Source: Escherichia coli (GTDB lineage Bacteria; Pseudomonadota; Gammaproteobacteria; Enterobacterales; Enterobacteriaceae). From it: a DNA stretch of 64,000 nt. The position numbers were made by a program, and so were the translations under genes. Below are positions 21,171 through 58,204 of the stretch, piece by piece. Where the stretch lies: NCBI RefSeq assembly GCF_003019035.1, contig NZ_CP027447.1. One strand, 5' to 3'. Numbering within the stretch: the first letter of the stretch is position 1; each line of letters opens with the position of its first letter. A model generated the notes under the pieces. The model saw only the letters and a list, made by a program, of their open reading frames with translations. It was not told where the DNA came from and did no database searches.

Positions 21171-21434
21171 TCAGAGCTGGTTCACCCCATCAAGAACATC
21201 CCCCTTTATCAAGCAACGCTGCGTCAGCGCCAGATCTTCCGATTGCGGGTCGCGCCCGGCGATGGGTTTGAGGACGAGTTTACGGTTGGGGGTATAAGTA
21301 AAACGCGTGAGCGCGGGATAGCTTAACTTGCCAAACCAGCCGTGAACACGCTGCCATTTGGCGTCTTTTACCTGATACAGACTGGTTATCCAGTAACCGG
21401 AATCAAACTGCATATCCAGCAATTGCGTGTGGCC
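21171..21434 (-). pseudogene. C-terminal fragment of a host ORF split by the prophage
   Basis: Frame is continuous with the N-terminal fragment at 57696..58204 once the prophage and one copy of the direct repeat are removed. Confidence 0.7.
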
Positions 21435-21440
21435 ATTCCT
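21435..21440. repeat. Left target-site duplication (ATTCCT; 5 or 6 bp)
   Basis: Identical ATTCCT immediately flanks the other prophage end at 57695..57700. Confidence 0.7.
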
Positions 21441-21483
21441 TGATCAGACATGAGATAAATGAAGGGGGATCCGTGAGATAAAT
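21441..21483. repeat. Left prophage end with putative transposase-binding repeats
   Basis: TGAGATAAAT at 21451 and 21474; inverted copy at the right end (57652..57661). Confidence 0.6.
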
Positions 21484-21801
21484 AACGAATTGGAGTGGGT
21501 TAACATGGGTTCTGGTGAACAGAACTGAAATTCTTTTTCGTTATACGATAGATAAGTCGGACATTGAAATCATCCTTTCTGGCAACTTAGAATCGAGTTT
21601 GCTGAAACATGACTCGTAACAAAAAGGATGATTCCAATGACTACTCAAAACAATAAGCATGATAGCCTGGATTACTCAGAAAAGCCCAAAAGCAAGCACA
21701 TCGTGACGTTCGAGCGCGATTCCGGTAGAAAAGGAGAATCGTCTTCCTCTGCCAATAAAAACACTATACCGGCAGCTCCTGCTCCGGGGAAAAAATAAAC
21801 A

Positions 21802-22434
21802 TCATTCATCGTTCGTTGCACGAACGCGCCTGATCTCCACTCTGGCAATCTGATCTGCTGGAATATAGGTTGCCAGAGCTCCCCAGTACTTATCAACCAC
21901 GCCTTTATACTCTTCCCATTCGTTACTGCCTGAAGGGCTGCTGTGTGTGACGTAAAGAACCATATCGCCTTTATTCCCCAGGGTAAACGGACCGTTAGGC
22001 CACTCTTCAAAGTTCCCTGGCAGTCGTGACATCATACCGGAACCATCGCGAAGAATCACTCTGACCTCGGTGACGCTGAAGTCTGTTTGATCAAACATTG
22101 CCTGCCATGCTGAGCTGGTATCGTCAGACCATGAAATATCATTATTCCACAGTAATCTGTACATCCATTTGCGACCGTACCTGCGCCACCACGCACCACA
22201 TGTAACAGCACACAGAAGTGCTGGTGGTGTTGCCAGCCAGGCATTCAGACCTGCCCACATAACAGCCTGGTAAGCCATCATTGCTGTCAGGCCAAAAATT
22301 AGCGAAGAAAAAGTCACCTCAATGGGTTTGTGCTGATCCTTCAGCCCCACATTCGCAATAAAATACCCAATATAGCCACTGGTCAGAGTCACCAGTGTTG
22401 CCCATGGCAAATTTAACAACGAAACGTCAAACAT
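21802..22434 (-). CDS. Hypothetical membrane protein (three predicted TM helices plus ~130 aa soluble domain); terminal moron
   Basis: ORF with GGAG RBS before MFDVSLLNL; lies between the mor terminator and the prophage left end; lower GC than neighbouring phage genes. Confidence 0.55.
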   Translation of the reverse strand: MFDVSLLNLPWATLVTLTSGYIGYFIANVGLKDQHKPIEVTFSSLIFGLTAMMAYQAVMWAGLNAWLATPPALLCAVTCGAWWRRYGRKWMYRLLWNNDISWSDDTSSAWQAMFDQTDFSVTEVRVILRDGSGMMSRLPGNFEEWPNGPFTLGNKGDMVLYVTHSSPSGSNEWEEYKGVVDKYWGALATYIPADQIARVEIRRVRATNDE

Positions 22435-22472
22435 ATTTTCTCCCTGCATCCTGAATACTACAGAGAGAGCAT

Positions 22473-22504
22473 AAAAAAAGCACGGTAAGGGGTCTACCGT
22501 GCTT
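22473..22504 (-). terminator. Rho-independent terminator downstream of mor
   Basis: Stem agcacggta/taccgtgct followed by a U7 run on the minus-strand transcript. Confidence 0.7.
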
Positions 22505-22548
22505 TTATACAATAAGGAGATTTTTGAAAGGACTTTAACAAGCAGGAA

Positions 22549-22947
22549 TTATCTGGATTTGTTAACGTCTCTCGTCTCTTCTGGCAGATCTTCATCAAAC
22601 AACCTGCCCTGCATCCGATCCAGTTCTTCTTTTCTGACCCGCTTAACCACGCTGTAGACCCACTGAAGCGAAACACCAAACTTGCGGGCCAGTTCATGGT
22701 GGTTGCGTCCGTTAAACTCCCGGAAGATTTCCCGGTCGCGCTGACTGACCTTCCATACCATGCCCATCGGGAAATAAACGTTTTGCCCGCCCCAGACCTG
22801 CATCATGCGGTTCGCGACGGCCTGACCAATCTGGTCGGCAATTGCGGGCTCAATATCAATAATCTCGCGAACGGTCTCAGAGGTATGCTGTGCCAGTTCC
22901 ACCAGGAGTTCCGGCCCTTTACTTCGAAACTGATTCAGGTCGCTCAT
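22549..22947 (-). CDS. mor: Mor/C-family middle/late transcription activator
   Basis: IFREFNGRNHHELARKFGVSLQWVYSVVKRVRK closely resembles the conserved Mu Mor C-terminal HTH region. Confidence 0.75.
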   Translation of the reverse strand: MSDLNQFRSKGPELLVELAQHTSETVREIIDIEPAIADQIGQAVANRMMQVWGGQNVYFPMGMVWKVSQRDREIFREFNGRNHHELARKFGVSLQWVYSVVKRVRKEELDRMQGRLFDEDLPEETRDVNKSR

Positions 22948-23371
22948 GTTTTACTCCCGCAGCTCTGCGCTGCCACTTCTTCAGTTTCTCAATAACACTG
23001 CTTGCCTGTTCTGTATTGAGCCAGCGCAGGGCGCTGATGCCCGTTTCCCGCTTGATCCACCGCGCTAATGCATTTTCTGAACGGTCACGAACAATGCCGG
23101 CAGCAGCCATTTCAAGCCATAGCGCACGGATTTTCCTGGACTGCGGATGGTTATCCAGCGGTAAACCGGAGCTGGCTTTTCCGGCAGGCTTAACGCGAAA
23201 GCCTTTCCTTTTCATGGATTCCAGCACGCAGTTTAGTTGTGTGGTATCCATTCCTTTGGTTGAGGCTTTACCGGTCAGCCCCTGTAACATCTGGCGGTAG
23301 GTGTCTTCATCCATACCCAGTTCATTACGGGCAATATGAATGAGCTGGATAAGACGTTGTTTAGTCATCAT
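22919..23371 (-). CDS. GemA-like (Mu gp16 family) protein
   Basis: Position immediately upstream of mor as in Mu; start codon uncertain (track ORF extends to 23410). Confidence 0.5.
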   Translation of the reverse strand: MMTKQRLIQLIHIARNELGMDEDTYRQMLQGLTGKASTKGMDTTQLNCVLESMKRKGFRVKPAGKASSGLPLDNHPQSRKIRALWLEMAAAGIVRDRSENALARWIKRETGISALRWLNTEQASSVIEKLKKWQRRAAGVKHERPESVSK

Positions 23372-23576
23372 CGTTGCTCCTTTTACCTGCGCCACCGATA
23401 TAATCGACATATAAAGGAAGCGCCACAGGCCAGCACAGGAACATCACCGACCAGCTAATCCAGTAGCCGGCACCACTGTAACGTGAATAAAACCCTGAAC
23501 GGCGGTGCAGTTCAGCAGTACACCAACCGACAAAACAATACCAGAACAGGGCACATACAACAGATTCAGCCGTCAT
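23361..23576 (-). CDS. Small hypothetical membrane protein (~71 aa, two hydrophobic segments)
   Basis: MTAESVVCALFWYCFVGW...; GGGGGA RBS; overlaps neighbouring genes in the early operon. Confidence 0.4.
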   Translation of the reverse strand: MTAESVVCALFWYCFVGWCTAELHRRSGFYSRYSGAGYWISWSVMFLCWPVALPLYVDYIGGAGKRSNDDD

Positions 23577-23796
23577 TCTGAATATCCCCCCAACTGATAT
23601 GAATATTACGGGCAGCAATGACAGGGTCGTTATCCCACCATGCACCTGACATGTATTTTTCAACCTGTTCGCGTCCGGCAATAACACCAATTGTGATCCC
23701 CGGCCTGACGTTCTTAAAAAAGGCGCGGGCAAAAAGGTATCTGGCAGATATTCGGCAGGCTTTTAATTTCCGGCTGTTACCTGATAGCGTAATCAT
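23566..23796 (-). CDS. Hypothetical early protein (76 aa)
   Basis: ATGA start/stop overlap with the upstream gene. Confidence 0.35.
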   Translation of the reverse strand: MITLSGNSRKLKACRISARYLFARAFFKNVRPGITIGVIAGREQVEKYMSGAWWDNDPVIAARNIHISWGDIQNDG

Positions 23797-24476
23797 CTGG
23801 CCTCCAGTTTCTGTTGTTCCTGCCCACTGACCGGGCGGTGCAGTCTGACGTTCTGCCCTTCACGAAACCCCGCATAGCGCGAGGCGTCACCATTGCGGCT
23901 TCTTCCCGGTTTACGCGCCCTGGTGGTTTGCGTTTGCGGGTATTTATGTTCCAGCCACTGCTGCATCAGTTCACGTTCGTCATCAGTCAGGGCGAAGGAC
24001 TGTATTTCACTGATAACGGCCAGCACCCAGCCTTCAGCAAACTGGTCTCCACGGCTGGTGCGGGTGGCGGTTTTTATTCTTTTGTTCTGTGTGCTGATAT
24101 ACTGCTGACGCGCCTTTTTCAGCTGGCGGGCCAGCACTTCCCAAGTGTACGCAGCCAGTGCGGCCCGTTCCCGGTTGCCGTAGAATCCCACACCCGGATA
24201 TGTGCCGGGGTGAATGATGGAGTTAACACCAAATGCCTCGCGGATGATGTTCATCAGGCCCAACATATAGCGCGGTGGACGGAGGCTGCCTGTCGGCCAG
24301 TAGTGGCTGATGGTTTCATCAATATCACTCATGGCAATGTCGGAATGTGTGATGCCGTGAACATCCATCAGTTTACGGGCACGGCGCAGTGCCAGAGCGG
24401 CCTCGTGCGGGTTGCCGGATGCAGCCAGCGCCAGCAGTTTTTTCAGTTTCTCAATGTGTTTATCCAGGTCTGTCAT
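23793..24476 (-). CDS. Hypothetical early protein (227 aa)
   Basis: Long ORF in the early operon; no recognisable catalytic motif. Confidence 0.5.
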   Translation of the reverse strand: MTDLDKHIEKLKKLLALAASGNPHEAALALRRARKLMDVHGITHSDIAMSDIDETISHYWPTGSLRPPRYMLGLMNIIREAFGVNSIIHPGTYPGVGFYGNRERAALAAYTWEVLARQLKKARQQYISTQNKRIKTATRTSRGDQFAEGWVLAVISEIQSFALTDDERELMQQWLEHKYPQTQTTRARKPGRSRNGDASRYAGFREGQNVRLHRPVSGQEQQKLEAR

Positions 24477-24778
24477 TGTTCGGTATCTCCGGTGTACATG
24501 ACGCCCAGCCGTGCGGCAAGGCGTTCCAGTTTTTTCTGTTTGTGGAAGTCAATCAGCCGGCCCATCCCCTGAAGACGCAACTGCTCTGTCATGATTTCCA
24601 CGTCTGCCAGCTCTGCCGCGAGGTCACTTTCGCTGCCCTGTCCGTTCAGGTTGCGGGCAGCACTGGCCGCCAGTTCGGCGGCCTCTTCTGTCAGTTTCAG
24701 GGCCTGTGCATCCGGCCCGAAACGCTGCAGAGCCAGACGATAGAGGGCAGTGCGTGTGAGTATGGTGTTCCGTGTCAT
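24473..24778 (-). CDS. Small all-alpha NTP pyrophosphohydrolase-like (MazG-like) protein
   Basis: LTEEAAELAASAARN...LAAELADVEIMTEQL resembles the paired E-rich helices of MazG-type domains. Confidence 0.45.
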   Translation of the reverse strand: MTRNTILTRTALYRLALQRFGPDAQALKLTEEAAELAASAARNLNGQGSESDLAAELADVEIMTEQLRLQGMGRLIDFHKQKKLERLAARLGVMYTGDTEQ

Positions 24779-24787
24779 GCCGCGCCC

Positions 24788-25060
24788 TCAGTGCTTCCGG
24801 TCGACGGTGATGTGCAGGCCGCCTTCTGCAGTGGTTTCCATCCGGTACGGCACCTCATGCTCTGCCGTGTGGGTGAGTGTGTTCACCAGTACCTGCAGGG
24901 CAGCCTCCTTTCCGTTGGTCGTCACAATGGCCTGAGCGGCCATGCTGATTAGCGCTGTCAGGACGTGCTTCACATCGGTGAGGTCGCGGCATTCACACTC
25001 GTTGACATAGTGTTCAACAAGGGTTCGGGTGCGCTGTCGTGCTTCCTGTGGGGTAATCAT
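24788..25060 (-). CDS. Hypothetical early protein (90 aa)
   Basis: ORF in the early operon. Confidence 0.4.
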   Translation of the reverse strand: MITPQEARQRTRTLVEHYVNECECRDLTDVKHVLTALISMAAQAIVTTNGKEAALQVLVNTLTHTAEHEVPYRMETTAEGGLHITVDRKH

Positions 25061-25251
25061 TGCGAGTCCTCCCTGTCAGGGCGGGAGAATTCCATGACGG
25101 GCACGTCCGCTGAAAAATGTTGGCTGCAGTACGGACAGACCAGGGTGACGCGCACTGCAGGTACGTGGTACTTACCGGACATCACGGCGATGGCGCTGTG
25201 AAAACGCAGGGCTGTTATATCCCTCTCGCACTGAATACATTTAAATATCAT
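25057..25251 (-). CDS. Small zinc-ribbon protein (64 aa)
   Basis: Two CxxC pairs (CIQC ... CPYC). Confidence 0.45.
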   Translation of the reverse strand: MIFKCIQCERDITALRFHSAIAVMSGKYHVPAVRVTLVCPYCSQHFSADVPVMEFSRPDREDSQ

Positions 25252-25348
25252 GATTTAATTCTCCTCTGTTTCCGGCGTGCAGAAGCCCACGGCGCTGACG
25301 CCGGAATAAAAAAGAAAATGTTTTTATTAAATAATTAACGTGGTGTGT

Positions 25349-25879
25349 TTACTGCACATCCTGCTCAAAAGGAATTATTGAAAAATCCTCAATATCACTT
25401 TTTATGGTAATACCGGGAATATTTTTCACGGCCTCTTTTTCATTCAGAATGGCATCTTTATTTATTTCCTCTTTTACACGAATAAAGCGCTCAAGCCCCA
25501 GACGTCTCAGTAGTTCAATAACATTATCCGCTCCACGGATACTGACTGATGGCGGACGGTTTCGCCACTGCACCTCGCCGGTGGTGAGGTTAGCGAACTT
25601 CACCTTCCCGTTGCCGGTCAGTTCATCACGGTGTGCCTCACACCATGTCTGAATACCGGACTGCAGTTCGGCCATGCGTTTTTTCAGGCTCTCGGTGAGC
25701 GGGGCATAACGTGCGGTGATATCGCCAATGGCGTCATTCATTTCTGTTTCAGCCCTGACCAGTTCACGTTGTGCGTCACCGAGCAGTCTGATTCCCTCAA
25801 TGACCTCTTCGCGTGTCCCCGGTACCCAGAGTGCCGCTGCGGACTTGATACGTTTTGCCCCTTTTGTACTTTTTGCCAT
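25349..25879 (-). CDS. gam: Gam-like host-nuclease inhibitor (DNA-end binding)
   Basis: 176 aa; AKRIKSAAA, RPPSVSIRG and GITIKSDIEDFSIIPFEQ closely match Mu Gam. Confidence 0.85.
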   Translation of the reverse strand: MAKSTKGAKRIKSAAALWVPGTREEVIEGIRLLGDAQRELVRAETEMNDAIGDITARYAPLTESLKKRMAELQSGIQTWCEAHRDELTGNGKVKFANLTTGEVQWRNRPPSVSIRGADNVIELLRRLGLERFIRVKEEINKDAILNEKEAVKNIPGITIKSDIEDFSIIPFEQDVQ

Positions 25880-25906
25880 ATCTTATGATTTCTCCGGTTG
25901 TGCTGA

Positions 25907-26176
25907 TTACCACAAAGATTCCGGCCACACGACGCGACAGCCGTGCAGTTCGAAAACGCCCTGACGGAAATATCCCCTGTGGTCATGTCCGGTATACAGA
26001 TAACAGGCCTTTCCCTGCTCAAGCATGCGCATGCAATGCGCACTTCGGGAAACGCGGATGACAGGTTTGTTACCCCTGATGGTGATGCTTTGTACATCCG
26101 TGTTCGTCGCCTTAAGCGCCATAATGGCTGACTGCACTTTGCTGATTTGCTGGTTGATACCTGTGGTGGATTTCAT
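25907..26176 (-). CDS. Hypothetical early protein (89 aa) in the position of Mu kil
   Basis: ORF immediately downstream of B. Confidence 0.4.
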   Translation of the reverse strand: MKSTTGINQQISKVQSAIMALKATNTDVQSITIRGNKPVIRVSRSAHCMRMLEQGKACYLYTGHDHRGYFRQGVFELHGCRVVWPESLW

Positions 26177-26178
26177 TA

Positions 26179-27345
26179 TTAAACCCCTTTGACAACGTCA
26201 GCGTTGACCTGTGGAACCCCGATTTCAGCGGCCAGATTCATGGCGGCTATCACCAGGTTACTGACGGCCAGCGGATACAACAGGCTGACCATATTTTTAC
26301 GATGACTTCCCGGATTGCTCAGGCGGGCACGTATGGCATCCACTGCACTGGCGTCCATAATGTCCGTCAGTTGTTTACCTGCCCGTTGCAGTTTGAACGT
26401 CAGAAACTCTTCAAGGTTATTGTCCAGAGGCAGAAGTTCGACCACCTCACAGCGCTGAACGACTTCACGGACTTCCATATTGCGTTCAGACAGTTTTGTC
26501 GCCAGTTCCGGCTGGCCAATCAGCACGATGGACAGCAGTTTTTTGAAACCGGACTCCAGCTCAAAAAAGCGTTTGAGGTGTTTCAGTGTCGGAATGGGCA
26601 GACTGTGGGCCTCCTCAATCACCAGAACGTGGCTGAACCCCGCCTGGCTGCTGTCTTTCAGGACGCGATGCAACTGGCGAAAGCGGGCGTCCTGACTGCG
26701 TCTGATGCTTTCCAGTGGTGCGATGGTACTGATAATGGCTTCGGCAATAGCTGCTGCCTTCAGGGTTTTCCCTTTCACATCGTTGTCTTCCATAGCGATG
26801 ATGTATGGCTCGATAACAATTACCGGCGCATTCTCGCGGTTGATACGTTCAGTCAGGTCGCGGCGCAGCGTGGATTTACCCGCACCGGACTCACCGATGA
26901 CGGCCATAAACCCACCATGACGGGCTGTCTGGTACAACGCCTCACGCACGTAGCGAATGTCCGGGGTGGTGAACACATCATCAGAACCCTGCATGGCTTC
27001 GTCGGCGAACGGGTCACGGAAAAGACCAAACGCTTTTTTGGTTGCTGGAAATAACACCTGTTTTTTGAGTAACATATTCTCTTCCTCACTGAGGCTCGTT
27101 TTATCTGTGGTACCCGCTGTACGGGGCGTGGCCGCGCCCTGTACAGCATCAAAACTCTTCGCTGTATCAATCCCCTGACTTTCCAGCCAGGACGCAAGAC
27201 GCCGGCGCACTTCTCCGGGGCTGGTGCGGGGCCACGCGTTATGATTCACAATCTGGGCCAGCGTGGCCTCAGAAACATCGACAGCTCTCGCCACCACCGC
27301 CTGTGGAATACGGGCCTCTTTCAGTTGCTGCTTCAGTACCAGCAT
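26179..27345 (-). CDS. Transposition ATPase (Mu B-like AAA+ protein)
   Basis: Walker A GESGAGKST; N-terminal HTH-like region; GAGGAGG RBS; immediately downstream of the transposase. Confidence 0.8.
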   Translation of the reverse strand: MLVLKQQLKEARIPQAVVARAVDVSEATLAQIVNHNAWPRTSPGEVRRRLASWLESQGIDTAKSFDAVQGAATPRTAGTTDKTSLSEEENMLLKKQVLFPATKKAFGLFRDPFADEAMQGSDDVFTTPDIRYVREALYQTARHGGFMAVIGESGAGKSTLRRDLTERINRENAPVIVIEPYIIAMEDNDVKGKTLKAAAIAEAIISTIAPLESIRRSQDARFRQLHRVLKDSSQAGFSHVLVIEEAHSLPIPTLKHLKRFFELESGFKKLLSIVLIGQPELATKLSERNMEVREVVQRCEVVELLPLDNNLEEFLTFKLQRAGKQLTDIMDASAVDAIRARLSNPGSHRKNMVSLLYPLAVSNLVIAAMNLAAEIGVPQVNADVVKGV

Positions 27346-27355
27346 GTTTCCCTCC

Positions 27356-29125
27356 TCAGTTGCCGTTAACAATGCTGATAACGCTGCTGCGGGCCGGCGT
27401 GGTCAGCGTGGCCATGACTTCATCCAGTGCGGCTTCCGGTACGCCGTCCGGGTACTGTGCCGTTAACTGGCGGTAATGTTCCGGCGTCCAGGTAAGGCCG
27501 TCGGCGCTGAACTTATCGCGCAGGGCTTTCGCGGCCTCCACATGAGTCATGGGACGTTGTTCAGTGCGCGGTCTGCGTACATCAGAGGCCTGACCGCGCT
27601 TCGGTATACAGGCCGGAAGTGTGGCGTCATCAATATGTTTATACGGGTCAAGCCGCCCGCCGAACGGCAGCGCCTTCGCCTTGCGTGCGGCAGCTGCATC
27701 TGCGGCGTTGTCTGTACCGGTGACCAGCGCTTCGGTTTCTTTTGCCGCCGTCTGTGCCGGTGTTTCCGGCAGGGCTTTGTAACTTTCGCCAAATACCGCC
27801 GCGCCTTCAGCAAAGCCAAACTCGTTCTTTCTGACCTCTTCGACCAGGAAGAACGTCTCGTGGCCGTCCTCACCGGTCAGAACCACCTGTGCCACATCGC
27901 TGCGCCATGGGTTACGGGTAATCATCAGTTTTTCACCAACCAGTACGCCCGGTACCGTTGATACGTCAAATTCAGTGCCCCGGAACGAGACACGAAGTTT
28001 TGGCGTGACTTTGCGGAGTTCTGGTGTCGTCACAGCCAGTTCACGGCATACCTCAACGGAAGGCGCTTTTTTCAGCTGCTCAGCAGTAATCTTCAGCCAG
28101 ATATCCGTGCGGGTTTTACCGTGGCGGCTGTGAACAGCTGTTGCGTTAAAGTGGCTACGCCATTTCGCGGCCAGCGCGTTGAGTTCTTCCAGACTGTGAA
28201 CCGGCCGGAACTTCAGACCCGGCTCCAGCTTGCGTTCGATAATGTCACGCGCCTTTTCCACCTGTCCGGTGGCGCGGGCGTTATGCGGCTTGTGCGCTAT
28301 CAGGTCGATGCCCAGTGAGCGGCACATGTTTTTCGTCATACCCGCGGTGTTTGCCGAGCCGGGGTCGAGATAGAGTATTTTCGGCACGCCGTGCAGCACG
28401 TCTGCGCCGCCACGCTCCTGCATGGCGTTGATAAGCACAGAACACAGGTTCTCACCGGATTCCGCACCCGTCACATACTCAACGTAAATCCAGCCGCTGG
28501 CATGGTCGGTAATCTCGTAACTCCACACGCGGTCACTGGCGATACGGGCAAGGTTAGCGGGCTTGTTCTTGTAGAACTTCGCGCTGTCCATCACCTGCAG
28601 CCCTTTGTGTCCATTGCTCAGGTAGTAAAGCGTGCAGAGAGAGGCATCAATCTGCCAGACATGATTGGGATGCAGACTGGCCACTTCGGTATGCGGCGCA
28701 GGGGCATCCAGTTGTTCCGGGTGCAGGCCATAGTTACGCAGGGCACGGCTGATAGCATCTTCGGACAACGGGAAAAACTCACCGGTGGTTTCATCTGTTC
28801 TGCCTGCGGAGATAAAGCCGTTAGCCCGCAGGGTTTCCACTGCATCTGCGATGGAATAGAGACGCTTACCGTTCTTGCGGGTGGCCTCACGTAGTGTGGC
28901 AGATATCAGCGCGGCTTCGTCGCGGGTCAGGGCGCTGCGCCCGGCATCGGCGCGTTTTTTGCGTTTATCAGTCACAGAGACCTCCTTCAGCCTGCGCAGC
29001 AGAGTGGCGCGGGACATGCCAAGTTCAGCACAGGCGGCGTCATATATTGCACCACGTTTACCATGCCCCGCGTCACGTGCCGCGCGGGCGACATAAACCA
29101 GTCGTTCAGTCAGGGCAGCATTCAT
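27356..29125 (-). CDS. DDE transposase (Mu A-like)
   Basis: 589 aa; N-terminal HTH-like region, integrase-core motifs (HVWQIDAS, YLDPGSANT). Confidence 0.8.
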   Translation of the reverse strand: MNAALTERLVYVARAARDAGHGKRGAIYDAACAELGMSRATLLRRLKEVSVTDKRKKRADAGRSALTRDEAALISATLREATRKNGKRLYSIADAVETLRANGFISAGRTDETTGEFFPLSEDAISRALRNYGLHPEQLDAPAPHTEVASLHPNHVWQIDASLCTLYYLSNGHKGLQVMDSAKFYKNKPANLARIASDRVWSYEITDHASGWIYVEYVTGAESGENLCSVLINAMQERGGADVLHGVPKILYLDPGSANTAGMTKNMCRSLGIDLIAHKPHNARATGQVEKARDIIERKLEPGLKFRPVHSLEELNALAAKWRSHFNATAVHSRHGKTRTDIWLKITAEQLKKAPSVEVCRELAVTTPELRKVTPKLRVSFRGTEFDVSTVPGVLVGEKLMITRNPWRSDVAQVVLTGEDGHETFFLVEEVRKNEFGFAEGAAVFGESYKALPETPAQTAAKETEALVTGTDNAADAAAARKAKALPFGGRLDPYKHIDDATLPACIPKRGQASDVRRPRTEQRPMTHVEAAKALRDKFSADGLTWTPEHYRQLTAQYPDGVPEAALDEVMATLTTPARSSVISIVNGN

Positions 29126-29128
29126 TGG

Positions 29129-30043: not shown

Positions 30044-30053
30044 TGATTACTCC

Positions 30054-30603: not shown

Positions 30604-30689
30604 TGTTGTCTCCTTTGTTGATGCAATGATGTTTGTTTTATATGTGATAGATTATGTGAACTATTGTTCTCATTGTCAATGAGGTTTAT
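30604..30689. promoter_or_regulatory. Divergent early/repressor promoter-operator region
   Basis: 86 bp AT-rich spacer between divergent starts; three direct copies of TATGTGA (30641, 30653, 30687). Confidence 0.55.
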
Positions 30690-51139: not shown

Positions 51140-52281
51140 ACAGTACTGCGCAAGCCACATCAGCGTTAACCGGCGTCAGCGATGTGCTGACGCCGGTATT
51201 CACTCTGTGGTATCTGCAGAAAAACATCACCTCTGATATCGCGCCTTATGTCACCCGTGTGGTCTGGAGCGATAACATCAAAAATGAGTCCGATACCATT
51301 GAGGTGGAGCTGGACGACACCGATGGCCGCTGGCTGGATAAGTGGTATCCGGGCAAGGGTGACACGCTGACGCTGAAAATGGGTTATCAGGGCGAGAAAC
51401 TGCTGTCCTGCGGTACATTCTCAATAGACGAGATCGAAGTGAGTTCGCCCGCGTCCGTTGTCGCTATCCGTGGGGTGGCCACCTCGGTTAACAGTGCTCT
51501 GCGGACTAAATCCAGCCGTGGTTTTGAGAACACCACGCTGGCAGCTGTTGCGGGGCGGATTGCCAGAAAGCACCGGCTGAAACTGGTGGGCAGCATTGAG
51601 TCCATCAGAATCGACCGGGTGACCCAGTATGCTGAAACCGACGTGGGTTTTCTGCGCCGGCTGGCCAGCGAGTATGGTTATGCAGTGAAAGTGGTCAGTG
51701 ACCAGTTGATTTTTTCTCATCTGGCCACACTGCGCAGTCAGGAGCCGGTCAGGCAGTTAAAACCGCAGGATGTGGCCTGCTTTTCCCTGCGTGACACCAT
51801 CAACCGGGTCTATAAATCTGCAAAGGTAAAACACCAGAAAAGCAGCAGTAAAAAACTGATCGTCTACGAAGCTGATGGTGGTACCCGTGAAAGCGACAAA
51901 AAGCTCAAAGGCGGTAAGGTTACCAGCGCTGACTCACTTAAAGTTAACAGCCGCGTCAGCGACCCGGACAGTGCCCGGATTAAAGCGGATTCAGCACTGG
52001 CCAGACATAACGAATACCAGCAGAACGGCTCCCTGACGCTGACGGGAACGCCTCAACTGACAGCAGGCAACAAAATTGAACTGGTGGGCTTTGGACAGTT
52101 ATCCGGTCCATGGCTGATAATCACTGCCCGCCATGCGTTTGAGCGTAACAGCGGCTACACCACAGAGCTGGAAGTGGCACGGGGGCCAGTCACAAGAGGG
52201 AAAAAACAAAAAACTCAGAAACTCACGGTTTATCACCCGGATGGCAGTACATCGACGGTGATTAAGGAGAAGAAAAAATGA
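51127..52281 (+). CDS. Baseplate hub (P2 gpD / Mu gpP-like)
   Basis: 384 aa; position between X-like and spike genes. Confidence 0.7.
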   Translation: MAEINSTAQATSALTGVSDVLTPVFTLWYLQKNITSDIAPYVTRVVWSDNIKNESDTIEVELDDTDGRWLDKWYPGKGDTLTLKMGYQGEKLLSCGTFSIDEIEVSSPASVVAIRGVATSVNSALRTKSSRGFENTTLAAVAGRIARKHRLKLVGSIESIRIDRVTQYAETDVGFLRRLASEYGYAVKVVSDQLIFSHLATLRSQEPVRQLKPQDVACFSLRDTINRVYKSAKVKHQKSSSKKLIVYEADGGTRESDKKLKGGKVTSADSLKVNSRVSDPDSARIKADSALARHNEYQQNGSLTLTGTPQLTAGNKIELVGFGQLSGPWLIITARHAFERNSGYTTELEVARGPVTRGKKQKTQKLTVYHPDGSTSTVIKEKKK

Positions 52282-52805
52282 CTGGTGTCACCCGTCAGAT
52301 CGGTACGGTCAGTGCCGTTGATGCCGACAGGGTTCAGGCCCGCGTTCGTCTGCCTGAATGCGATAATCTGCGCACAAACTGGCTTAACGTGCTACAGCGC
52401 AATACCCAGGATAACAAGGATTACTGGCTCCCTGACGTGGGGGAGCAGGTTGAGGTGCTGCTCGATGCCAACGGCGAGGATGGTGTTATTCTGGGCGCGG
52501 TGTACTCAGACGTCGATAAACCGCCGTTCAGTGATAAAAACGTCCGGGGTACGAAATACGCTGATGGCGCGGAGTTCAGTTATAACCGCGCGACCCATAC
52601 GCTGACGGTCAGAGGAGGTATTGAGCGTATCGTGGTGGAGGTTGCCGCTGATATCTCTCTCAAAGGGAAAAAACTCGACCTCACGGGAGTTACCACGATC
52701 AACGGCCCCGCGACACTCAATGGTGATCTGGAAATCAACGGAAGCGCCCATGCAACGGGTAACATATTTGCTGATGGTCAGAACTCTAATCACCATTCCC
52801 ATTGA
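52278..52805 (+). CDS. Baseplate spike (P2 gpV-like)
   Basis: 175 aa; position. Confidence 0.7.
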   Translation: MTGVTRQIGTVSAVDADRVQARVRLPECDNLRTNWLNVLQRNTQDNKDYWLPDVGEQVEVLLDANGEDGVILGAVYSDVDKPPFSDKNVRGTKYADGAEFSYNRATHTLTVRGGIERIVVEVAADISLKGKKLDLTGVTTINGPATLNGDLEINGSAHATGNIFADGQNSNHHSH

Positions 52806-52861
52806 ACCTTCTTAAACGCCTTTAATATCGGCGCTTACTTCCCGGGGGCAATACTGCCTCC

Positions 52862-53209
52862 ATGAAAACGACCTCAGTATTCTGGCAACCAGCTCTGCAG
52901 GCTCCCGGCGAAATCGTCCGGGGGCTGGATGATATCCGGCAGTCCATCCAGATCATCCTGCGGACTCCCCGCGGCAGCGACCCGCATCGCCCGGAGTTCG
53001 GCAGCAATCTGCACCTTTATATCGACTGGCCTGTCGACCGGGCCATTCCGCATGTGGTTCGCGAATCCGTCGATGCCATCAGGCGCTGGGAACCCCGCTG
53101 CCAGCTTATGTCGGTTAAACCCGCCGTCGACGGCGAACATCTTACGCTCCGGGTGAGCTGGAAAGGCTCAGACGGACAACCCCGTACTCAGGAACTGCTA
53201 TGGCGCTGA
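52862..53209 (+). CDS. Baseplate wedge (GPW/gp25-like)
   Basis: 115 aa; position. Confidence 0.7.
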   Translation: MKTTSVFWQPALQAPGEIVRGLDDIRQSIQIILRTPRGSDPHRPEFGSNLHLYIDWPVDRAIPHVVRESVDAIRRWEPRCQLMSVKPAVDGEHLTLRVSWKGSDGQPRTQELLWR

Positions 53210-54303
53210 CAGAACCCGATTTTATTGAACGCGATGCCGATAAAATCACGGCAGAAATGATTGCGAAGTATGAAGAGGATACCGGAAAAACGCTGTACCC
53301 GGCACAGGCTGAACGTCTGCTGATTGACCTGTGGGCCTATCGCGAAATGCTGGTCAGGGTGGCAGTACAGGAGGCGGCGAAGCAGAATCTGGTCGCTTTT
53401 TCCCGTGAGCCGATGATTGATTACCTCGGTGAACTGGTCGGTGTATACCGCCTTGCCGCGCAGCCTGCCACCACCACACTTCAGTTCTCTGTGGATGAGG
53501 CACTGGCCATTGATGTGCTGATCCCGGCAGGCACCCGCGTCAGCGCTTCCGACAGTATTATTTTTGCCACCGATACAGACGTGGTGCTGAAGGCCGGATT
53601 GCTGCTGGTCAATGTCACGGCCACCTGTACCGAGCCGGGTACCGCTGGCAACGGCTGGCAACCGGCGCAGGTCAGTCAGTTACTCGATGAGATTGATAAC
53701 ATTGACCTGCTGGTGACCAATCTGACGGCCAGCTCTGGCGGTTCAGAGCAGGAAGACGATGACCGGCTCCGGGAGCGTATCAGGCTGGCCCCGGAGTCAT
53801 TCACCAATGCCGGAAGCCGTGGTGCATACCGTTTTCATGCTATGGGGGCGCATCCCGGCATTGTCGACGTTGCTGTTCTTTCTCCCGCTCCCGGCACTGT
53901 CGAGCTGTATCCGCTGCTCAGCACTGGTCTGCCGGACAGCAGTATCCTCACTCTGGTAGAGAGTTTCTGTTCTGACGAAAAAGTCAGACCACTCACTGAT
54001 ACCGTGCGGGCTAAAACACCTGTTCAGGTGGATTACACCATTGAAGCCAGGATTACGATCTATCGTGATCAGGATGCAAGGTTGGTAAAGGACAACGCTA
54101 ACAGCGCCATACAGAACTGGGTGGCATCCCGTACCGCCACGCTGGGGCGCGATATTGTTCCCAGCCAGATTATCAGCGTGTTGTCCGTTTCCGGGGTGTA
54201 CCAGGTCGAACTGGTGACACCGGCACTGAGGGTGGTGGCAGAAAACGAATGGGCAAACTGTACGGCGATCACTCTTAACATGACCGGGGTGTCCGATGGC
54301 TAA
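53200..54303 (+). CDS. Baseplate J-like protein
   Basis: 367 aa; position. Confidence 0.75.
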   Translation: MALTEPDFIERDADKITAEMIAKYEEDTGKTLYPAQAERLLIDLWAYREMLVRVAVQEAAKQNLVAFSREPMIDYLGELVGVYRLAAQPATTTLQFSVDEALAIDVLIPAGTRVSASDSIIFATDTDVVLKAGLLLVNVTATCTEPGTAGNGWQPAQVSQLLDEIDNIDLLVTNLTASSGGSEQEDDDRLRERIRLAPESFTNAGSRGAYRFHAMGAHPGIVDVAVLSPAPGTVELYPLLSTGLPDSSILTLVESFCSDEKVRPLTDTVRAKTPVQVDYTIEARITIYRDQDARLVKDNANSAIQNWVASRTATLGRDIVPSQIISVLSVSGVYQVELVTPALRVVAENEWANCTAITLNMTGVSDG

Positions 54304-54874
54304 GGTGCTACAACTCCCGCCACCGCTTGAGGGTGATATCAGTCTCAGAACGCTGGGAAGACTGGCCGGACGGCTGGATAACATCGACCTGAGCGTACTG
54401 ATGGTCGGTCTCGTCGATATTGTCGACAGTTCCGCGCTGCCATGGCTTGGCGAGCAGTTCTCGCTGTTCGGCGATGGCTGGGAACTGGCGGAATCGGACG
54501 ATGTACGCCGCATGCTTATCAAATCCGCTATCGAGCTACACCGCTATAAAGGAACACCGTGGTCAATCCGGGAAATTATCCGCCGTTTTGGCTTCGGCGA
54601 AGTGGATCTGATTGAAGGTACGGGGCAGATTGGCTATGACGGCAGACACACGTACAACGGGCTTTTCGTCCATGGTGATGCACAAGCCTGGGCAGTCTAT
54701 CGCGTCATCTTTCAACAACCCATCACTAACGATCAGGCGGCGCTGTTACGTCAGACGCTTGCTGCCTTTGCTCCGGCTCGCTGTCATCTGGCAAGTCTGG
54801 AATATCAGTCTGTCGCCATTCGATACAACAGTACTACCTGTTATGACGGTAGTTACAACCACGGGAGCAGTTAA
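54296..54874 (+). CDS. Tail protein I (P2 gpI / Mu gp48-like)
   Basis: 192 aa; position before the fibre gene. Confidence 0.65.
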   Translation: MAKVLQLPPPLEGDISLRTLGRLAGRLDNIDLSVLMVGLVDIVDSSALPWLGEQFSLFGDGWELAESDDVRRMLIKSAIELHRYKGTPWSIREIIRRFGFGEVDLIEGTGQIGYDGRHTYNGLFVHGDAQAWAVYRVIFQQPITNDQAALLRQTLAAFAPARCHLASLEYQSVAIRYNSTTCYDGSYNHGSS

Positions 54875-54876
54875 TT

Positions 54877-55845
54877 ATGGCAAATCTACCCGAAACCCCG
54901 CAGTGGGAAAGCGGCATCTACCAGATTGAGGTCTCTGACCCCGTTCTGGGCGGACCTGACGGAATTTCTAACCGCCAGGCTAAACAACTGGCCAGCCGAA
55001 CGTCATACCTCAAACAGAAGGTCGAAAAAAGCGGAACAGACCTGGCTGCACATATCGCGGCAGTTGACCCGCATACCCAGTACGCGACGAAAGCCAGTCC
55101 GACATTCACCGGCACACCAACAGCACCTACACCTGCAAATGGTGATAACAGCAAAAAGCTGGCGACGACGGAGTTTGTGGCCAAAGCACTTGCGGCACTT
55201 GCAGGCAGCGCCCCTGAGACACTGGATACGCTTAAAGAGCTGGCTGACGCTCTCGGTAATGATCCAAACTTTGCGACTACGGTACTGAACAAGCTGGCGG
55301 AAAAGCTGGCTAAAGACCAGAACGGCGCAGATATTCCTGAGCCTGCGCTGTTTGTCAAAAACCTTGGTTTGGGGGAAGGCTCTGCACTGCCCGTTGGTGT
55401 GCCCGTTCCGTGGCCCTTAGCAACACCACCAACGGGCTGGCTGAAATGTAACGGTGCAGCATTTTCTTCTGAAATGTACCCCAAACTGGCAAAAGCCTAC
55501 CCCGCGAATAAATTACCGGATTTACGCGGAGAATTTATCCGTGGCTGGGATGATGGGCGAGGAATTGATGCGGCACGCGCTTTATTGAGCATTCAAAACG
55601 GGATGTTGGAAAAACACCGCCATATTGTTGTAGCTAACGATGGATATGACACAAAAGATGAATGGGAGTTGGCTACGATTTTCAAAAAAACATATACACA
55701 AGGCAGGGGGCTTGATGCCACAAATACAGGAGGGAGTTTGACTCCATCACCAACGCTTCATTCACGAGGAAGTATTGGTAACACAGGTGGTAGTGAAACC
55801 CGCCCCCGCAATATTGCATTTAACTATATCGTGAGGGCGGCTTAG
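54877..55845 (+). CDS. Tail fibre protein (constant N-terminus plus invertible C-terminal variant 1)
   Basis: 322 aa; tail-collar-like domain (GWLKCNGAAFSSEMYPKLAKAY...LPDLRGEFIRGWDDGRGID); C-terminal part lies inside the invertible segment. Confidence 0.8.
   Translation: MANLPETPQWESGIYQIEVSDPVLGGPDGISNRQAKQLASRTSYLKQKVEKSGTDLAAHIAAVDPHTQYATKASPTFTGTPTAPTPANGDNSKKLATTEFVAKALAALAGSAPETLDTLKELADALGNDPNFATTVLNKLAEKLAKDQNGADIPEPALFVKNLGLGEGSALPVGVPVPWPLATPPTGWLKCNGAAFSSEMYPKLAKAYPANKLPDLRGEFIRGWDDGRGIDAARALLSIQNGMLEKHRHIVVANDGYDTKDEWELATIFKKTYTQGRGLDATNTGGSLTPSPTLHSRGSIGNTGGSETRPRNIAFNYIVRAA
55352..55377. other. Left invertase crossover site (gix/hix-like)
   Basis: TTGTCAAAAACC-TT-GGTTTGGGGGAA; outer half-site matches the Hin/Gin half-site TTATCAAAAACC. 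Confidence 0.7.
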
Positions 55846-55851
55846 TTATAT

Positions 55852-56469
55852 TCAACTGGCTGCTGCCAGAGGCATTTCCGGCCAGTTGATATCCGGTGCA
55901 GTGCTGATGTCAGTCGCATTAAGCACATCTATGAAATCAAGCACGGCGTTTAGTTTTTCCGTCTCCTGGGGCGTCAATCGGCGTCCGGCTCGTAGTTTGA
56001 GATTTATAAGCTCAACAGATGCCATTGCCTGTTCCTCAAGTTGCTGACGATGCACTCCGGCAGCTTCCAGTTCTGCTGCGTGCTGTCGTCCCGCATCTGT
56101 CACCCAGGTCTCACCATCCCAGACATCATAGATAGTAGCTGGCTGTTTCACCGTCGTATCAGGAGGGTAATCTCCCGGTTGTGTGATTTGCACAGCGTTA
56201 CCATTCTCTGTGCTGTAAACCGTTTCGCCTCTGTGGTCTGGAACATATTTCCAGATGTTCTGGTCGGTATCACGACAGACAGCGAAGCCGGGGCGTTTTT
56301 CTGGTGGCGCGTCAATGCATGAGTGAGCCGGAATTCCAACACCATAAGCGAGATACTCAACAGTGGCAGAGAGATATTCACGGTTTTCAGCATCGTAGTT
56401 ATAAACGGTAATATCGCCTGCAGTTATAGCGATACCATTCTGATCAAGTACTGCAGCAGCATTATTCAT
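55852..56469 (-). CDS. Tail fibre assembly protein (Tfa)
   Basis: 205 aa; C-terminal TDISTAPDINWPEMP resembles the Tfa motif DTSTAPDIEWP. Confidence 0.8.
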   Translation of the reverse strand: MNNAAAVLDQNGIAITAGDITVYNYDAENREYLSATVEYLAYGVGIPAHSCIDAPPEKRPGFAVCRDTDQNIWKYVPDHRGETVYSTENGNAVQITQPGDYPPDTTVKQPATIYDVWDGETWVTDAGRQHAAELEAAGVHRQQLEEQAMASVELINLKLRAGRRLTPQETEKLNAVLDFIDVLNATDISTAPDINWPEMPLAAAS

Positions 56470-56966
56470 TAAGTAGCCCTTACAATATAGTTAAACGCAA
56501 TATTACGGGGGCGGTTTTCCGTTCCTGTATTCCCTCCGTTGGCACCTAATCTATAAACACCACGAGTGCCAATAGCACGTAGTGAAGATGGAACTTTTAC
56601 ACCTGACTCATCTGTTTTAACAATCCCGCCATCACCGTATGTAGCCAGTATACCAGGGTTTGTTCCTGCACGGGTGCTATTTGCGGCAAGCCCTTCACCA
56701 GTCCATAACTCCATATAGTGAATATGATCTATAACCGAATGTGATTGTGCATTAAGCAAGGAACGCCCTGAATCAATTCCCCGCCCGTCATCCCAGCCGC
56801 GAATAAACTCACCCCGTAAATCCGGTAATTTATTCGCGGGGTAGGCTTTTGCCAGTTTGGGGTACATTTCAGAAGAAAATGCTGCACCGTTACATTTCAG
56901 CCACCCTGCTGGCGGTGTGGCTGAGGGCCACGGAACGGGCACACCAACGGGCAGTGCAGAGCCTTC
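56469..56966 (-). CDS. Alternative tail-fibre C-terminal cassette (expressed after inversion)
   Basis: Encodes the same tail-collar region (GEGSALPVGVPVPWP...RGWDDGRGID) followed by a different C-terminus. Confidence 0.7.
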   Translation of the reverse strand, partial: EGSALPVGVPVPWPSATPPAGWLKCNGAAFSSEMYPKLAKAYPANKLPDLRGEFIRGWDDGRGIDSGRSLLNAQSHSVIDHIHYMELWTGEGLAANSTRAGTNPGILATYGDGGIVKTDESGVKVPSSLRAIGTRGVYRLGANGGNTGTENRPRNIAFNYIVRAT

Positions 56967-56978
56967 CCCCAAACCAAC
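56953..56978. other. Right invertase crossover site (gix/hix-like)
   Basis: TTCCCCCAAACC-AA-CGTTTTCGTCTT; inner half-site is the inverted copy of the left inner half-site. Confidence 0.7.
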
Positions 56979-57043
56979 GTTTTCGTCTTAACTCCCACCT
57001 ATACCAGCTATGTATTTTTAACAAAACAAAGAGGATATTTTTC

Positions 57044-57616
57044 ATGCAAATTGGCTACATTCGTGTGTCAACAAATGACCAGAATACAGATTTACAACGA
57101 AACGCACTGAACTGCGCAGGATGTGAACTGATTTTTGAGGATAAAATCAGCGGAACAAAGTCAGCCCGACCGGGATTGAAAAAGCTGCTCAGAACGTTAT
57201 CAGAAGGAGATACGCTCGTTGTCTGGAAGCTGGACAGGCTGGGCAGAAGCATGAAACACCTCATCACTCTTATTGAGGAACTGCGGGAAAAAGGGGTTAA
57301 CTTCCGTAGTCTTACAGACAGCATTGATACGTCAACACCCATGGGACGTTTCTTTTTTCACGTCATGGGGGCTTTAGCGGAAATGGAGCGTGAATTAATA
57401 GTTGAACGAACACTGGCCGGACTTGAAGCAGCACGTGCACAGGGGCGTATTGGTGGACGTCGTCCGAAACTGACAAAAGAGCAACATGAACAAATAGCAA
57501 GGCTGATCAAAAATGGCTATAGCAGGAAACAGTTGGCAATTATTTACGATATCGGTATATCGACGATTTATCGTTATCACCCTGTAGAGGAACTTCAAAC
57601 TCAAGCTGAGTTGTAA
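57044..57616 (+). CDS. gin: Serine DNA invertase (Gin/Hin/Pin family)
   Basis: MQIGYIRVSTNDQNTDLQRNAL... with catalytic Ser in the YIRVST motif and C-terminal HTH; AAGAGGA RBS. Confidence 0.9.
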   Translation: MQIGYIRVSTNDQNTDLQRNALNCAGCELIFEDKISGTKSARPGLKKLLRTLSEGDTLVVWKLDRLGRSMKHLITLIEELREKGVNFRSLTDSIDTSTPMGRFFFHVMGALAEMERELIVERTLAGLEAARAQGRIGGRRPKLTKEQHEQIARLIKNGYSRKQLAIIYDIGISTIYRYHPVEELQTQAEL

Positions 57617-57651
57617 TTCTTTTTCTGATATTGAAATGCCGCGGCGATGTA

Positions 57652-57694
57652 ATTTATCTCACGGAAATAGGTACGTTTATCGCGCGGCGCATCA
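57652..57694. repeat. Right prophage end with putative transposase-binding repeat
   Basis: ATTTATCTCA (inverse of TGAGATAAAT) 33 bp inside the terminus, symmetric with the left end; terminus ...GCGCATCA. Confidence 0.6.
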
Positions 57695-57700
57695 ATTCCT
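57695..57700. repeat. Right target-site duplication (ATTCCT; 5 or 6 bp)
   Basis: Identical to 21435..21440. Confidence 0.7.
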
Positions 57701-58204
57701 TTGTAAATCCAGCAAATCATCAATGCCAGTTTCACTTGCGGTATAAAAACTATCGGACTGAAAAACACACGGGCGACCTTGCTGATTAAAGGTCATCAGA
57801 ATCAAAAACGCGTTAGGTGCCAGACCATTTCCTGAAATACCCCGCCAGATAACCAGATCCTGAATGCCGTTACGATCAAGATCGGCACGGTAAAGTTGCG
57901 CATTACCCGCCATATTTTGCAGCACCCCCACAGGCACAGACCAGGATTTACCGGCGCGATCTTTACCGTTCAATTGCCATTCACTATCATCATTTGGCAT
58001 CTTTTCAAGCGTCACGCCAGCAACGCCGACTTTTCTAAAATGCCAGGTTTGCTCGGCATCATAAGGCATGGTCAGGAGAGGTTTCAGCGCCCGCTTTTGC
58101 GCGTATTCGCTGTCACTCATCGGCAGATATTCGGTAAAGCTGGTGGCCTGTGCAGGCAGCACTAAGCTCAATAAAAAAGCGCACATCCCTGTTCTGATGT
58201 TCAA
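57696..58204 (-). pseudogene. N-terminal fragment of the host ORF split by the prophage (signal-peptide protein)
   Basis: Signal-peptide-like N-terminus (MCAFLLSLVLPAQA); terminated by a TGA formed by the prophage's last 3 bp; in frame with 21171..21434. Confidence 0.7.

Follow-up and report, generated by a model that had tools for sequence, protein, structure and literature searches.

Apparent transposition of a BcepMu-like prophage into an accessory gene for a predicted exported protein downstream of hycI in Escherichia coli

In the Escherichia coli DNA analyzed here (a stretch of 64,000 nucleotides, hereafter the window), a prophage lies between ascB and hycI and is flanked on either side by a short open reading frame (ORF) on the minus strand. 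This arrangement raises the question of whether the two frames are the separated halves of one host gene and, if so, what kind of element divided it and what the host lost as a result. A first-pass annotation had proposed that the prophage splits a host ORF whose fragments rejoin in frame. Our overall explanation, to which we assign a probability of about 0.95, is that a BcepMu-like phage transposed into an accessory gene for an exported protein located just downstream of hycI. Coordinates of the relevant features are listed in Table 1.

Table 1. Features of the interrupted locus and of the prophage. Positions are those of the window; the strand is left empty for repeats and for the invertible segment.
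Feature	Position	Strand	Remarks
ascB, 6-phospho-beta-glucosidase	19648..21084	+	Host gene to the left, transcribed toward the interrupted gene; annotated under this name in TCM3e1 and K-12
3' host-gene fragment	21171..21434	-	Codons G171-L257 of the 257-codon frame; stop codon at 21171-21173; 100% identical to the 3' part in TCM3e1
Left target-site duplication, ATTCCT	21435..21440		6 bp
Mu-like (BcepMu-like) transposable prophage	21441..57694	+	36,254 bp; ends 5'-TGATCAG...GCGCATCA-3', set by comparing independent insertions
Phage left end	21441..21490	+	Two copies of GAGATAAAT, at phage positions 12 and 35
Mor-family transcription activator	22549..22947	-	Orthologous CDS annotated as Mor family
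MuB-like DNA transposition ATPase (ExeA family)	26179..27372	-	phrog_296 "DNA transposition protein", E 2e-93; RefSeq annotation of orthologues
DDE (rve) transposase, 589 aa	27356..29125	-	phrog_310 transposase, E 2e-146; orthologues "integrase catalytic domain-containing protein"
Invertible tail-fibre segment	55358..56983		212-nt inverted repeats 55358-55569 and 56772-56983, 93% complementary
Gin/Hin-type serine DNA invertase, 190 aa	57044..57616	+	phrog_125 DNA invertase, E 1.5e-98
5' host-gene fragment	57692..58204	-	Signal peptide (predicted) and 170 codons; TGA from the last 3 bp of the phage
Right target-site duplication, ATTCCT	57695..57700		6 bp; corresponds to the last two codons (R169, N170) of the truncated ORF
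hycI, last named gene of the formate hydrogenlyase operon	58229..58699	-	Same strand as the interrupted gene, which follows 24 nt downstream

Reconstruction and distribution of the interrupted gene

Read on the minus strand, the 5' ORF runs from 58204 to 57695 and comprises 170 codons (MNIRTG...DLQRN). Its final two codons, AGG AAT, coincide with the right copy of the repeat, and its TGA stop codon (57694-57692) is the reverse complement of the terminal TCA of the phage, as the first-pass annotation had recognized. That annotation also placed the high end of the ORF correctly, at 58204; the low end, given as 57696, is actually at 57695, or 57692 if the stop codon is included.

When the phage and one copy of the repeat are deleted, the sequence reads ...DLQRN-GHTQLLDMQFDSGYW... 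and continues unbroken for 257 codons (251 counted from the first ATG) to its end at 21171. The insertion point falls between N170 and G171 of this frame, which corresponds to N164/G165 in the 251-aa numbering. The proposed in-frame junction thus stands, apart from the spelling of the junction peptide, in which two leucines are present (GHTQLLDMQ). The reconstructed empty site (902 bp) is 100% identical to the uninterrupted site of E. coli TCM3e1, so the split is not a product of chance. In TCM3e1, RefSeq annotates an intact CDS for a 251-aa hypothetical protein with ascB on one side and hycI on the other, which is the locus at which an intact gene had been expected.

It could be argued that the fragments are independent small genes, or the remains of a dead pseudogene, and that they fit in frame by coincidence, given that one chance junction in three would do so and that many truncated versions of the protein are present in databases. 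However, the intact 251/257-aa protein is recorded on hundreds of contigs and annotated as a single CDS, and each fragment is 100% identical to the intact allele. Moreover, the junction is spanned without interruption by 11 full-length homologues (from E. coli, E. albertii, Salmonella, Klebsiella and Leminorella), by homologues down to 48% identity and by a family of 327 members, whose best-conserved motif, GxDDLLDLQxNGxxQLL, contains the insertion junction. A structure model with one domain covering both parts, discussed below, also argues against separate genes. The first-pass annotation had named two outcomes that would contradict it, namely the lack of any intact homologue with this junction and homologues in which the fragments are independent genes, and neither was encountered. 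We consider a coincidental fit to have a negligible probability and, judging from the sequence, read the two fragments as one gene disrupted by the prophage.

The distribution of this gene is patchy within the species. At least 80% of the empty site is carried by 1,462 of 5,426 complete E. coli genomes (about 27%), and an intact copy is absent from the remaining 73% or so. In K-12 NCM3722, the gap between ascB and hycI measures only about 160 bp and the host gene is absent, which bears out the earlier impression that this is not a K-12 gene. The interrupted gene is accessory and dispensable, and is missing or truncated in most E. coli. Three distant family members (P0048, P0058 and P0064) have uninformative genomic contexts, as they lie on short contigs or beside unrelated genes. 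A literature search for the Salmonella homologue (with its locus tag guessed as STM2844) or for a gene downstream of hycI found nothing.

Nature of the inserted element

The two junctions have seven identical bases in common (ATTCCTT). Comparison with other insertions identifies the seventh base, the T at 21441, as the first base of the phage, which leaves a duplication of 6 bp. In three further, independent insertions, this phage is flanked by different 6-bp duplications, namely GATATT in rhaS, TCGAGA in ssuB and CATTCC in an amino-acid permease gene, and the duplication is therefore 6 bp long in four of the four insertions for which both ends were read. Right ends were also found in two further genes, one for a 4Fe-4S protein and one for a methyltransferase, and across strains the phage occupies still other unrelated sites, sfaA among them. 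Its TG...CA termini are invariant across six other insertions. Such ends, together with duplications of 5 or 6 bp, are hallmarks of transposable phages (PMC8705779; PMC2628397).

Two other readings of the duplication were set aside. A Mu-style duplication of 5 bp was rejected on the grounds that the bases preceding TGATCAG differ among insertions (T, T, A and C) and that six flanking bases are repeated everywhere. A "6 bp" mentioned in a paper on Citrobacter rodentium concerns a deletion, not phage duplications.

In addition to the transposase and its MuB-like partner, the phage carries genes for Mor, Gam and GemA as well as late genes of the myovirus type, in the same order as in annotated relatives. 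The GAGATAAAT repeats of the left end have a single counterpart at the right end, at the mirrored position 35, and are candidate transposase-binding repeats. On these features of its sequence, we classify the prophage as a transposable BcepMu-like phage, that is, a presumptive Mu-type myovirus. The first-pass annotation was silent on the transposable, Mu-like nature of the element, which is not an integrase-type prophage. Among genes of the phage variable regions, PADLOC called no defence system; only a weak resemblance to RmrA was seen, at the level of a helix-turn-helix (HTH).

Given the short direct repeat on either side of the element, the exact in-frame restoration of the gene and the presence of a recombinase gene at the right end, the arrangement might also be explained by site-specific recombination at an att core within the gene. 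The repeats would then represent attL and attR, and the gene could be subject to a reversible "active lysogeny" switch. However, the sole recombinase is the Gin-type invertase, which is adjacent to the segment bounded by inverted repeats and serves that segment rather than integration; both tyrosine and large serine integrases are absent, and a DDE transposase and MuB-like ATPase are encoded instead. Also, these phage ends recur at unrelated loci, where the 6-bp repeat is different each time, and therefore no att core is shared. As the prophage is a transposable Mu-like phage, its flanking repeat represents a target-site duplication of 6 bp rather than an att core. Mu-type prophages excise precisely only on very rare occasions, which makes a reversible switch unlikely. 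We regard recombination at an att core as effectively refuted.

Under the preferred reading, transposition of the phage, the transposase would have cut the target with a stagger of 6 bp, and subsequent repair would have left a copy of ATTCCT on each side of the phage. The palindromic phage terminus TGATCA supplies the TGA that ends the 5' fragment.

Assembly integrity deserves attention at such a locus. Multi-copy transposable phages often break short-read assemblies, and an independent contig (L018) stops 134 nt into the phage, as might be expected if a phage contig had been mis-joined into the chromosome. Such an artefact would not be expected to place a perfect 6-bp duplication exactly at termini defined from other genomes. 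In addition, an assembly from an independent read set contains an identical right junction (no mismatch over 3,647 nt), and 67 contigs, including one of 5.17 Mb, carry precisely this truncated product of 170 aa. A mis-assembly is thus very improbable. The insertion is inherited by a lineage of isolates, and the fact that neither fragment has diverged from intact alleles (100% identity) marks it as evolutionarily recent. A search for both junctions in 5,426 complete RefSeq E. coli genomes found the insertion in none of them.

The interrupted protein and its genomic neighbourhood

By inspection, the N-terminus of the interrupted protein has an n-region (MNIRTG), an h-region (MCAFLLSLVL) and a c-region (PAQA), followed by TS, and is devoid of a lipobox. 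UniProt entry B7LED0 is labeled "Periplasmic or exported protein". Both observations agree with the earlier suggestion of a secreted protein with a signal-peptide-like N-terminus, and we infer that the protein is probably exported to the periplasm through a Sec-type signal peptide.

The first-pass annotation had also recommended domain prediction on the intact protein. Pfam and NCBIfam scans yielded no match to the reconstructed E. coli protein (in Pfam, none even at E<=10), and PDB sequence searches with both profiles gave nothing beyond E values of about 1 (the integrin alpha-V FG-GAP Ca site and NTF2_HH). FG-GAP family membership was tested against Pfam FG-GAP (PF01839) or FG-GAP_3 (PF13517); among 61 family members, FG-GAP_3 matched three at E<=0.001 and 19 at E<=0.1. 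A fold was nonetheless predicted by AlphaFold. A model based on a 12-sequence alignment (pLDDT 55) was unusable, and an alignment of 61 sequences was used in its place. The resulting model has a pLDDT of 93 and a single domain spanning both fragments, and its predicted fold, which is confidently modelled, is all-beta and FG-GAP/VCBS-like. The closest known systems for the host protein are PliI, Tsi1 and X-Tfi XAC2610, which are periplasmic FG-GAP/VCBS-like partial beta-propellers.

The insertion truncates the product at residue 170 of 257, and six or seven beta-strands of the modelled domain fall after the break. The TGA contributed by the other phage end precedes the 3' fragment in frame, so no fusion protein is possible. 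The one product that can still be made is a truncated precursor of 170 residues, and the interrupted gene is therefore almost certainly null, a loss of function deduced from the sequence and the model. The fragment retains the signal peptide and one FG-GAP-like motif, and some residual or altered activity is conceivable. In view of the predicted removal of these strands, the earlier description of the lysogen as a natural knock-out appears sound. The phenotypic effect of the insertion may be nil.

In E. coli and Salmonella, the gene follows hycI on the same strand at a distance of 24-27 nt. The order is kept in Klebsiella, where the homologue adjoins hycI; the Leminorella homologue is located elsewhere. 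No promoter-like or terminator-like site was found in the gap between hycI and the gene. This synteny suggests that the gene may be co-transcribed with the hyc genes. The lysogen retains intact copies of hycI and ascB. The interrupted gene comes last in the direction of its transcription, and its disruption should therefore have no polar consequences for the hyc genes.

A more ambitious reading is that the interrupted gene, rather than being a random accessory ORF, is an ancestral, unnamed tenth member of the enterobacterial hyc (formate hydrogenlyase) transcription unit that E. coli has lost repeatedly. Its product would be an FG-GAP-like protein of the periplasm that may belong, as a binding protein or an inhibitor, to the PliI/Tsi1/X-Tfi structural class. 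The losses listed under this reading are the K-12 deletion, a truncation associated with higBA and the phage insertion. In K-12, the hyc operon works although the interrupted gene is absent. We consider a tenth hyc gene unlikely; if this reading were true, the lysogenic lineage would be a ready-made natural knock-out in which to search for a phenotype.

Comparison with known phages and implications

The prophage resembles Mu in representing a temperate myovirus of ~36 kb that is expected to insert essentially anywhere by DDE transposition and to inactivate target genes. Likenesses extend to the TG...CA ends, the short duplication, the MuA/MuB-type proteins, Mor, Gam and GemA and, at the right end, an invertible tail-fibre segment of the Gin type. 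However, the duplication is 6 bp here and 5 bp in Mu (PMC8705779). Also, the early and transposition genes of the prophage are oriented leftward and run toward the left end from a control region in the interior, at about 30.5 kb, whereas those of Mu itself run rightward from the left end. Mu was not among the nucleotide matches of the phage search.

Escherichia phage PhiKM (Bcepmuvirus) is 95.6% identical over 79% of 23.5 kb; similarity covers most of the early and head/tail regions, and gene order is shared. The BcepMu-like group includes PhiKM, Klebsiella phage KP12 and prophages in E. coli ST131 and other lineages, and the prophages of SK1144, G749 and IAL7250 are colinear with this one. 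Relatives of BcepMu have TG...CA termini and an rve-type transposase (PMC2628397), as does this prophage. It differs from BcepMu-like phages in its insertion site and in mosaic patches at 30657-32259 (the immunity region, in which a DNA adenine methylase is absent), 36731-38115 (large terminase), 47898-49043 (tape measure) and 54885-57000 (tail fibres). A 6-bp target-site duplication has been reported for the transposable Pseudomonas phage B3 (PMC8705779), but B3 has another host, and the phage search detected no nucleotide similarity to it.

This case is a real but ordinary instance of phage insertional mutagenesis; its biology is textbook and overturns nothing known. For annotation, the two flanking "hypothetical protein" fragments become one disrupted gene, the bounds of the prophage are fixed to the base, and its label becomes transposable BcepMu-like rather than integrase-type. 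Four clean cases document 6-bp duplications in this group of E. coli phages, as opposed to the 5-bp duplications of Mu. Finally, the locus documents a widespread and unstudied family of putative exported proteins, whose enterobacterial members lie directly after hycI, and identifies a lineage that is in all likelihood naturally null for it.

A host gene split by the prophage

The first-pass annotation held that the prophage divides a minus-strand ORF, that the phage itself supplies the TGA ending the 5' fragment, and that the two fragments rejoin in frame to encode about 257 aa. The window sequence bears this out (see the table), and the finding was correct in both observation and interpretation, with some adjustment of detail. 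The upstream end of the 5' fragment at 58204 stands, but at its low end the fragment reaches 57695 (57692 if the stop is counted), not 57696. Its TGA comes from the final three bases of the element, TCA, read in reverse complement. ATTCCT, which encodes the last two residues (R and N) of the 5' fragment, occurs again beside the 3' fragment; 7 bases are identical between the two junctions, but only 6 of them are truly duplicated. Deletion of the element and one repeat copy leaves an unbroken 257-codon frame (251 codons if the second possible start, an ATG at 58186, is used) that ends at 21171. The peptide at the rejoined junction reads ...DDLLDLQRN, then GHTQLLDMQFDSGYW...; the in-frame join was as described, but two leucines follow GHTQ.

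Features of the locus and prophage (window coordinates)
Feature	Position	Strand	Remarks
REP-like palindromic sequences (GCCGGATGCGGCGTGAACGCCTTATCCGGCCTAC...)	21085-21170		between ascB stop and 3' end of interrupted gene
3' fragment	21171-21434	-
Copies of ATTCCT	21435-21440; 57695-57700
Element	21441-57694		36,254 bp; ends set by aligned independent insertions
TGATCA termini	21441-21446; 57689-57694
Mosaic replacement patches	30657-32259; 36731-38115; 47898-49043; 54885-57000
Variable immunity-region patch	30690-32098	+
Invertible tail-fibre segment	55358-56983		beside invertase; 212-nt inverted repeats, 93% complementary
Inner inverted pair	55795-55844 / 56470-56519		50 nt
Gin-type invertase	57044-57616		190 aa; right end; phrog_125
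5' fragment ORF	TTG 58204; last codon AAT 57697-57695; TGA 57694-57692	-	sequence reading
hycI	58229-58699		intact

The empty site rebuilt in silico (902 bp) matches E. coli TCM3e1 at 100% identity over its full length, and in that strain RefSeq annotates one 251-aa hypothetical protein (WP_077902345.1) between ascB and hycI. Among complete E. coli genomes (5,426 searched), 1,462 have at least 80% of the empty site. In K-12 NCM3722 the interval is only ~160 bp and lacks the gene, which the first-pass annotation had not recognised as a K-12 gene. A protein search recovered full-length homologues, none of them named, in several genera, including E. albertii (88-89% identity), Salmonella enterica (~70%), Klebsiella spallanzanii (61%) and Leminorella (48%). 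When 12 sequences were aligned, the junction fell within the best-conserved block of the family, GxDDLLDLQxNGxxQLL. Because this block runs unbroken through the junction in every homologue, the proposed search for an intact counterpart gave neither of the refuting outcomes, a lack of any intact homologue or evidence for two independent genes. The possibility that the fragments are independent genes is excluded by these continuous homologues and by a single-domain AlphaFold model, and the sequence comparisons show that the two fragments are one gene.

The insertion is known from more than this one sequence. Database records place the truncated product, exactly 170 aa and unaltered, on 67 contigs, the length of one being 5.17 Mb. 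An assembly from an independent read set (SRR31111281) agrees with the window at every position over 3,647 nt (0 mismatches), a stretch that takes in 134 nt from the right end of the phage. The junction was not found in any complete RefSeq genome of the collection searched (5,426 E. coli). An assembly artefact is very unlikely: the duplication is perfect at termini that were defined independently, and other assemblies contain an identical junction.

A transposable phage with a 6-bp target duplication

Rather than an integrase-type prophage, the inserted element is a transposable phage of the Mu-like kind. Its sequence shares 95.6% identity with Escherichia phage PhiKM (classified in Bcepmuvirus) and ~85% with Klebsiella phage KP12. 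Among its products are a DDE transposase of 589 aa (phrog_310, E 2e-146), encoded next to a MuB-like transposition ATPase (phrog_296, E 2e-93), and homologues of Mor, Gam and GemA/gp16; the myovirus late gene set is complete. Gene order is colinear with that of related prophages, with ordinary mosaic replacement patches. The immunity-region patch carries genes for an HTH regulator of 141 aa, for which PADLOC gave a weak RmrA-like match at the HTH level, and a 328-aa protein (phrog_10002) with no assigned function; in their place, PhiKM and the related prophages of SK1144 and G749 have a DNA adenine methylase.

Other E. coli carry the same phage ends at many loci unrelated to this one. To fix the ends, junctions from several of these insertions were retrieved and aligned. 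The left end is constant (TGATCAGACATGAGATAAATG), and the base before it is T, T, A or C across the insertions; the T at 21440 therefore belongs to the host. A constant sequence was likewise seen at the right end (...CGCGCGGCGCATCA), and together these ends define the span of the element. The termini are the canonical 5'-TG...CA-3'; BcepMu relatives are described with such ends and with an rve transposase akin to the Tn552 enzyme (PMC2628397). A GATC Dam site lies within the palindromic terminal hexamer TGATCA at either extreme end.

In all four insertions for which both ends were read, exactly 6 flanking bases are duplicated, different each time: ATTCCT in the window, GATATT in rhaS (IAL7250), TCGAGA in ssuB (SK1144, an ST131-type insertion) and CATTCC in an amino-acid permease gene (G749). 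The flanking repeat is thus a target-site duplication. In the literature Mu duplicates 5 bp and phage B3 duplicates 6, and a duplication of either length is treated as the scar of transposable prophages (PMC8705779); this E. coli BcepMu-like group differs from Mu in duplicating 6. The variation of the repeat between sites and the lack of an integrase exclude integration at a specific site, and with it a reversible "active lysogeny" switch. ATTCC is common to two of the four targets (ATTCCT and CATTCC), though with only four sites no preference can be called. The rhaS copy in IAL7250 is a defective derivative: it is 99.96% identical to this phage over the left 7.5 kb, but an internal deletion joins a truncated transposase gene to late genes, leaving ~30 kb.

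The interrupted protein and its locus

The protein had no match in Pfam, NCBIfam or PDB sequences. Searched with a profile, 1.84 billion representatives yielded 327 relatives. Most of these are 330-360 aa long; a C-terminal extension of ~100 residues is thus missing from the enterobacterial form. When 61 family members were scanned singly, 19 gave weak FG-GAP_3 matches (3 at E<=0.001); AFDB labels distant relatives "VCBS repeat-containing" or "FG-GAP repeat", and labels the 98% identical E. coli 55989 protein (B7LED0) "Periplasmic or exported protein". The TTG start is preceded by an AAGGAA Shine-Dalgarno sequence, and the N-terminus from it, MNIRTG-MCAFLLSLVL-PAQA/TS, looks by inspection like a putative Sec signal peptide.

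In E. coli the gene directly follows hycI on the same strand after a 24-nt gap. The Salmonella homologue lies 27 nt after hycI on the same strand, between hycI and hydN, and that of K. spallanzanii adjoins hycI on the same strand among toxin-antitoxin modules; the Leminorella homologue is located elsewhere. Because this position is kept in three genera, it suggests an unnamed extra gene ending the hyc transcription unit. Neither a promoter-like nor a terminator-like site was found in the hycI-gene gap, which is weak evidence, and a literature search found nothing on this gene.

The ascB-hycI locus is a polymorphic hot spot in E. coli, with the gene intact, intact beside a higBA toxin-antitoxin module (CU39ES-1), reduced to an N-terminal remnant of 55-61 aa with a higA-like gene (W224N, p4A), or absent (K-12). 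Given these states, the gene is dispensable and repeatedly lost, and phage insertion is one further route to its loss. In p4A and CU39ES-1 the far side of the locus carries hydN or other genes instead of ascFB. Part of the REP-like stretch is what K-12 retains.

Consequences of the insertion

At most 170 residues, the putative signal peptide and ~148 mature residues, can be made from the 5' fragment. Since TGATCA is palindromic, either phage end gives an in-frame TGA on the minus strand; one stops the 5' fragment, and the other lies two codons upstream of the duplicated RN preceding the 3' fragment. As read from the sequence, a phage-host fusion protein is impossible. An AlphaFold model from the 61-sequence alignment (mean pLDDT 93, pTM 0.89) is a single all-beta domain. 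Loss of function is a reasonable inference, because predicted strands of this domain (168-175, 178-187, 190-193, 196-198, 201-203 and 205-208, in 251-aa numbering) lie past the break. Both hycI and ascB are intact, and as the interrupted gene comes last in its transcription direction, no polarity on hyc is to be expected. The insertion is recent, since both fragments remain 100% identical to intact alleles.

This event is a new instance of known behavior, textbook for a mutator-type phage, in a non-essential, uncharacterized accessory gene. Mildly useful by-products are prophage boundaries exact to the base, evidence that this E. coli phage group duplicates 6 bp, and a putatively exported, unstudied protein family that synteny ties to hycI. 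For the phage, the invertase and inverted repeats would imply alternative tail-fibre C-termini and host ranges.
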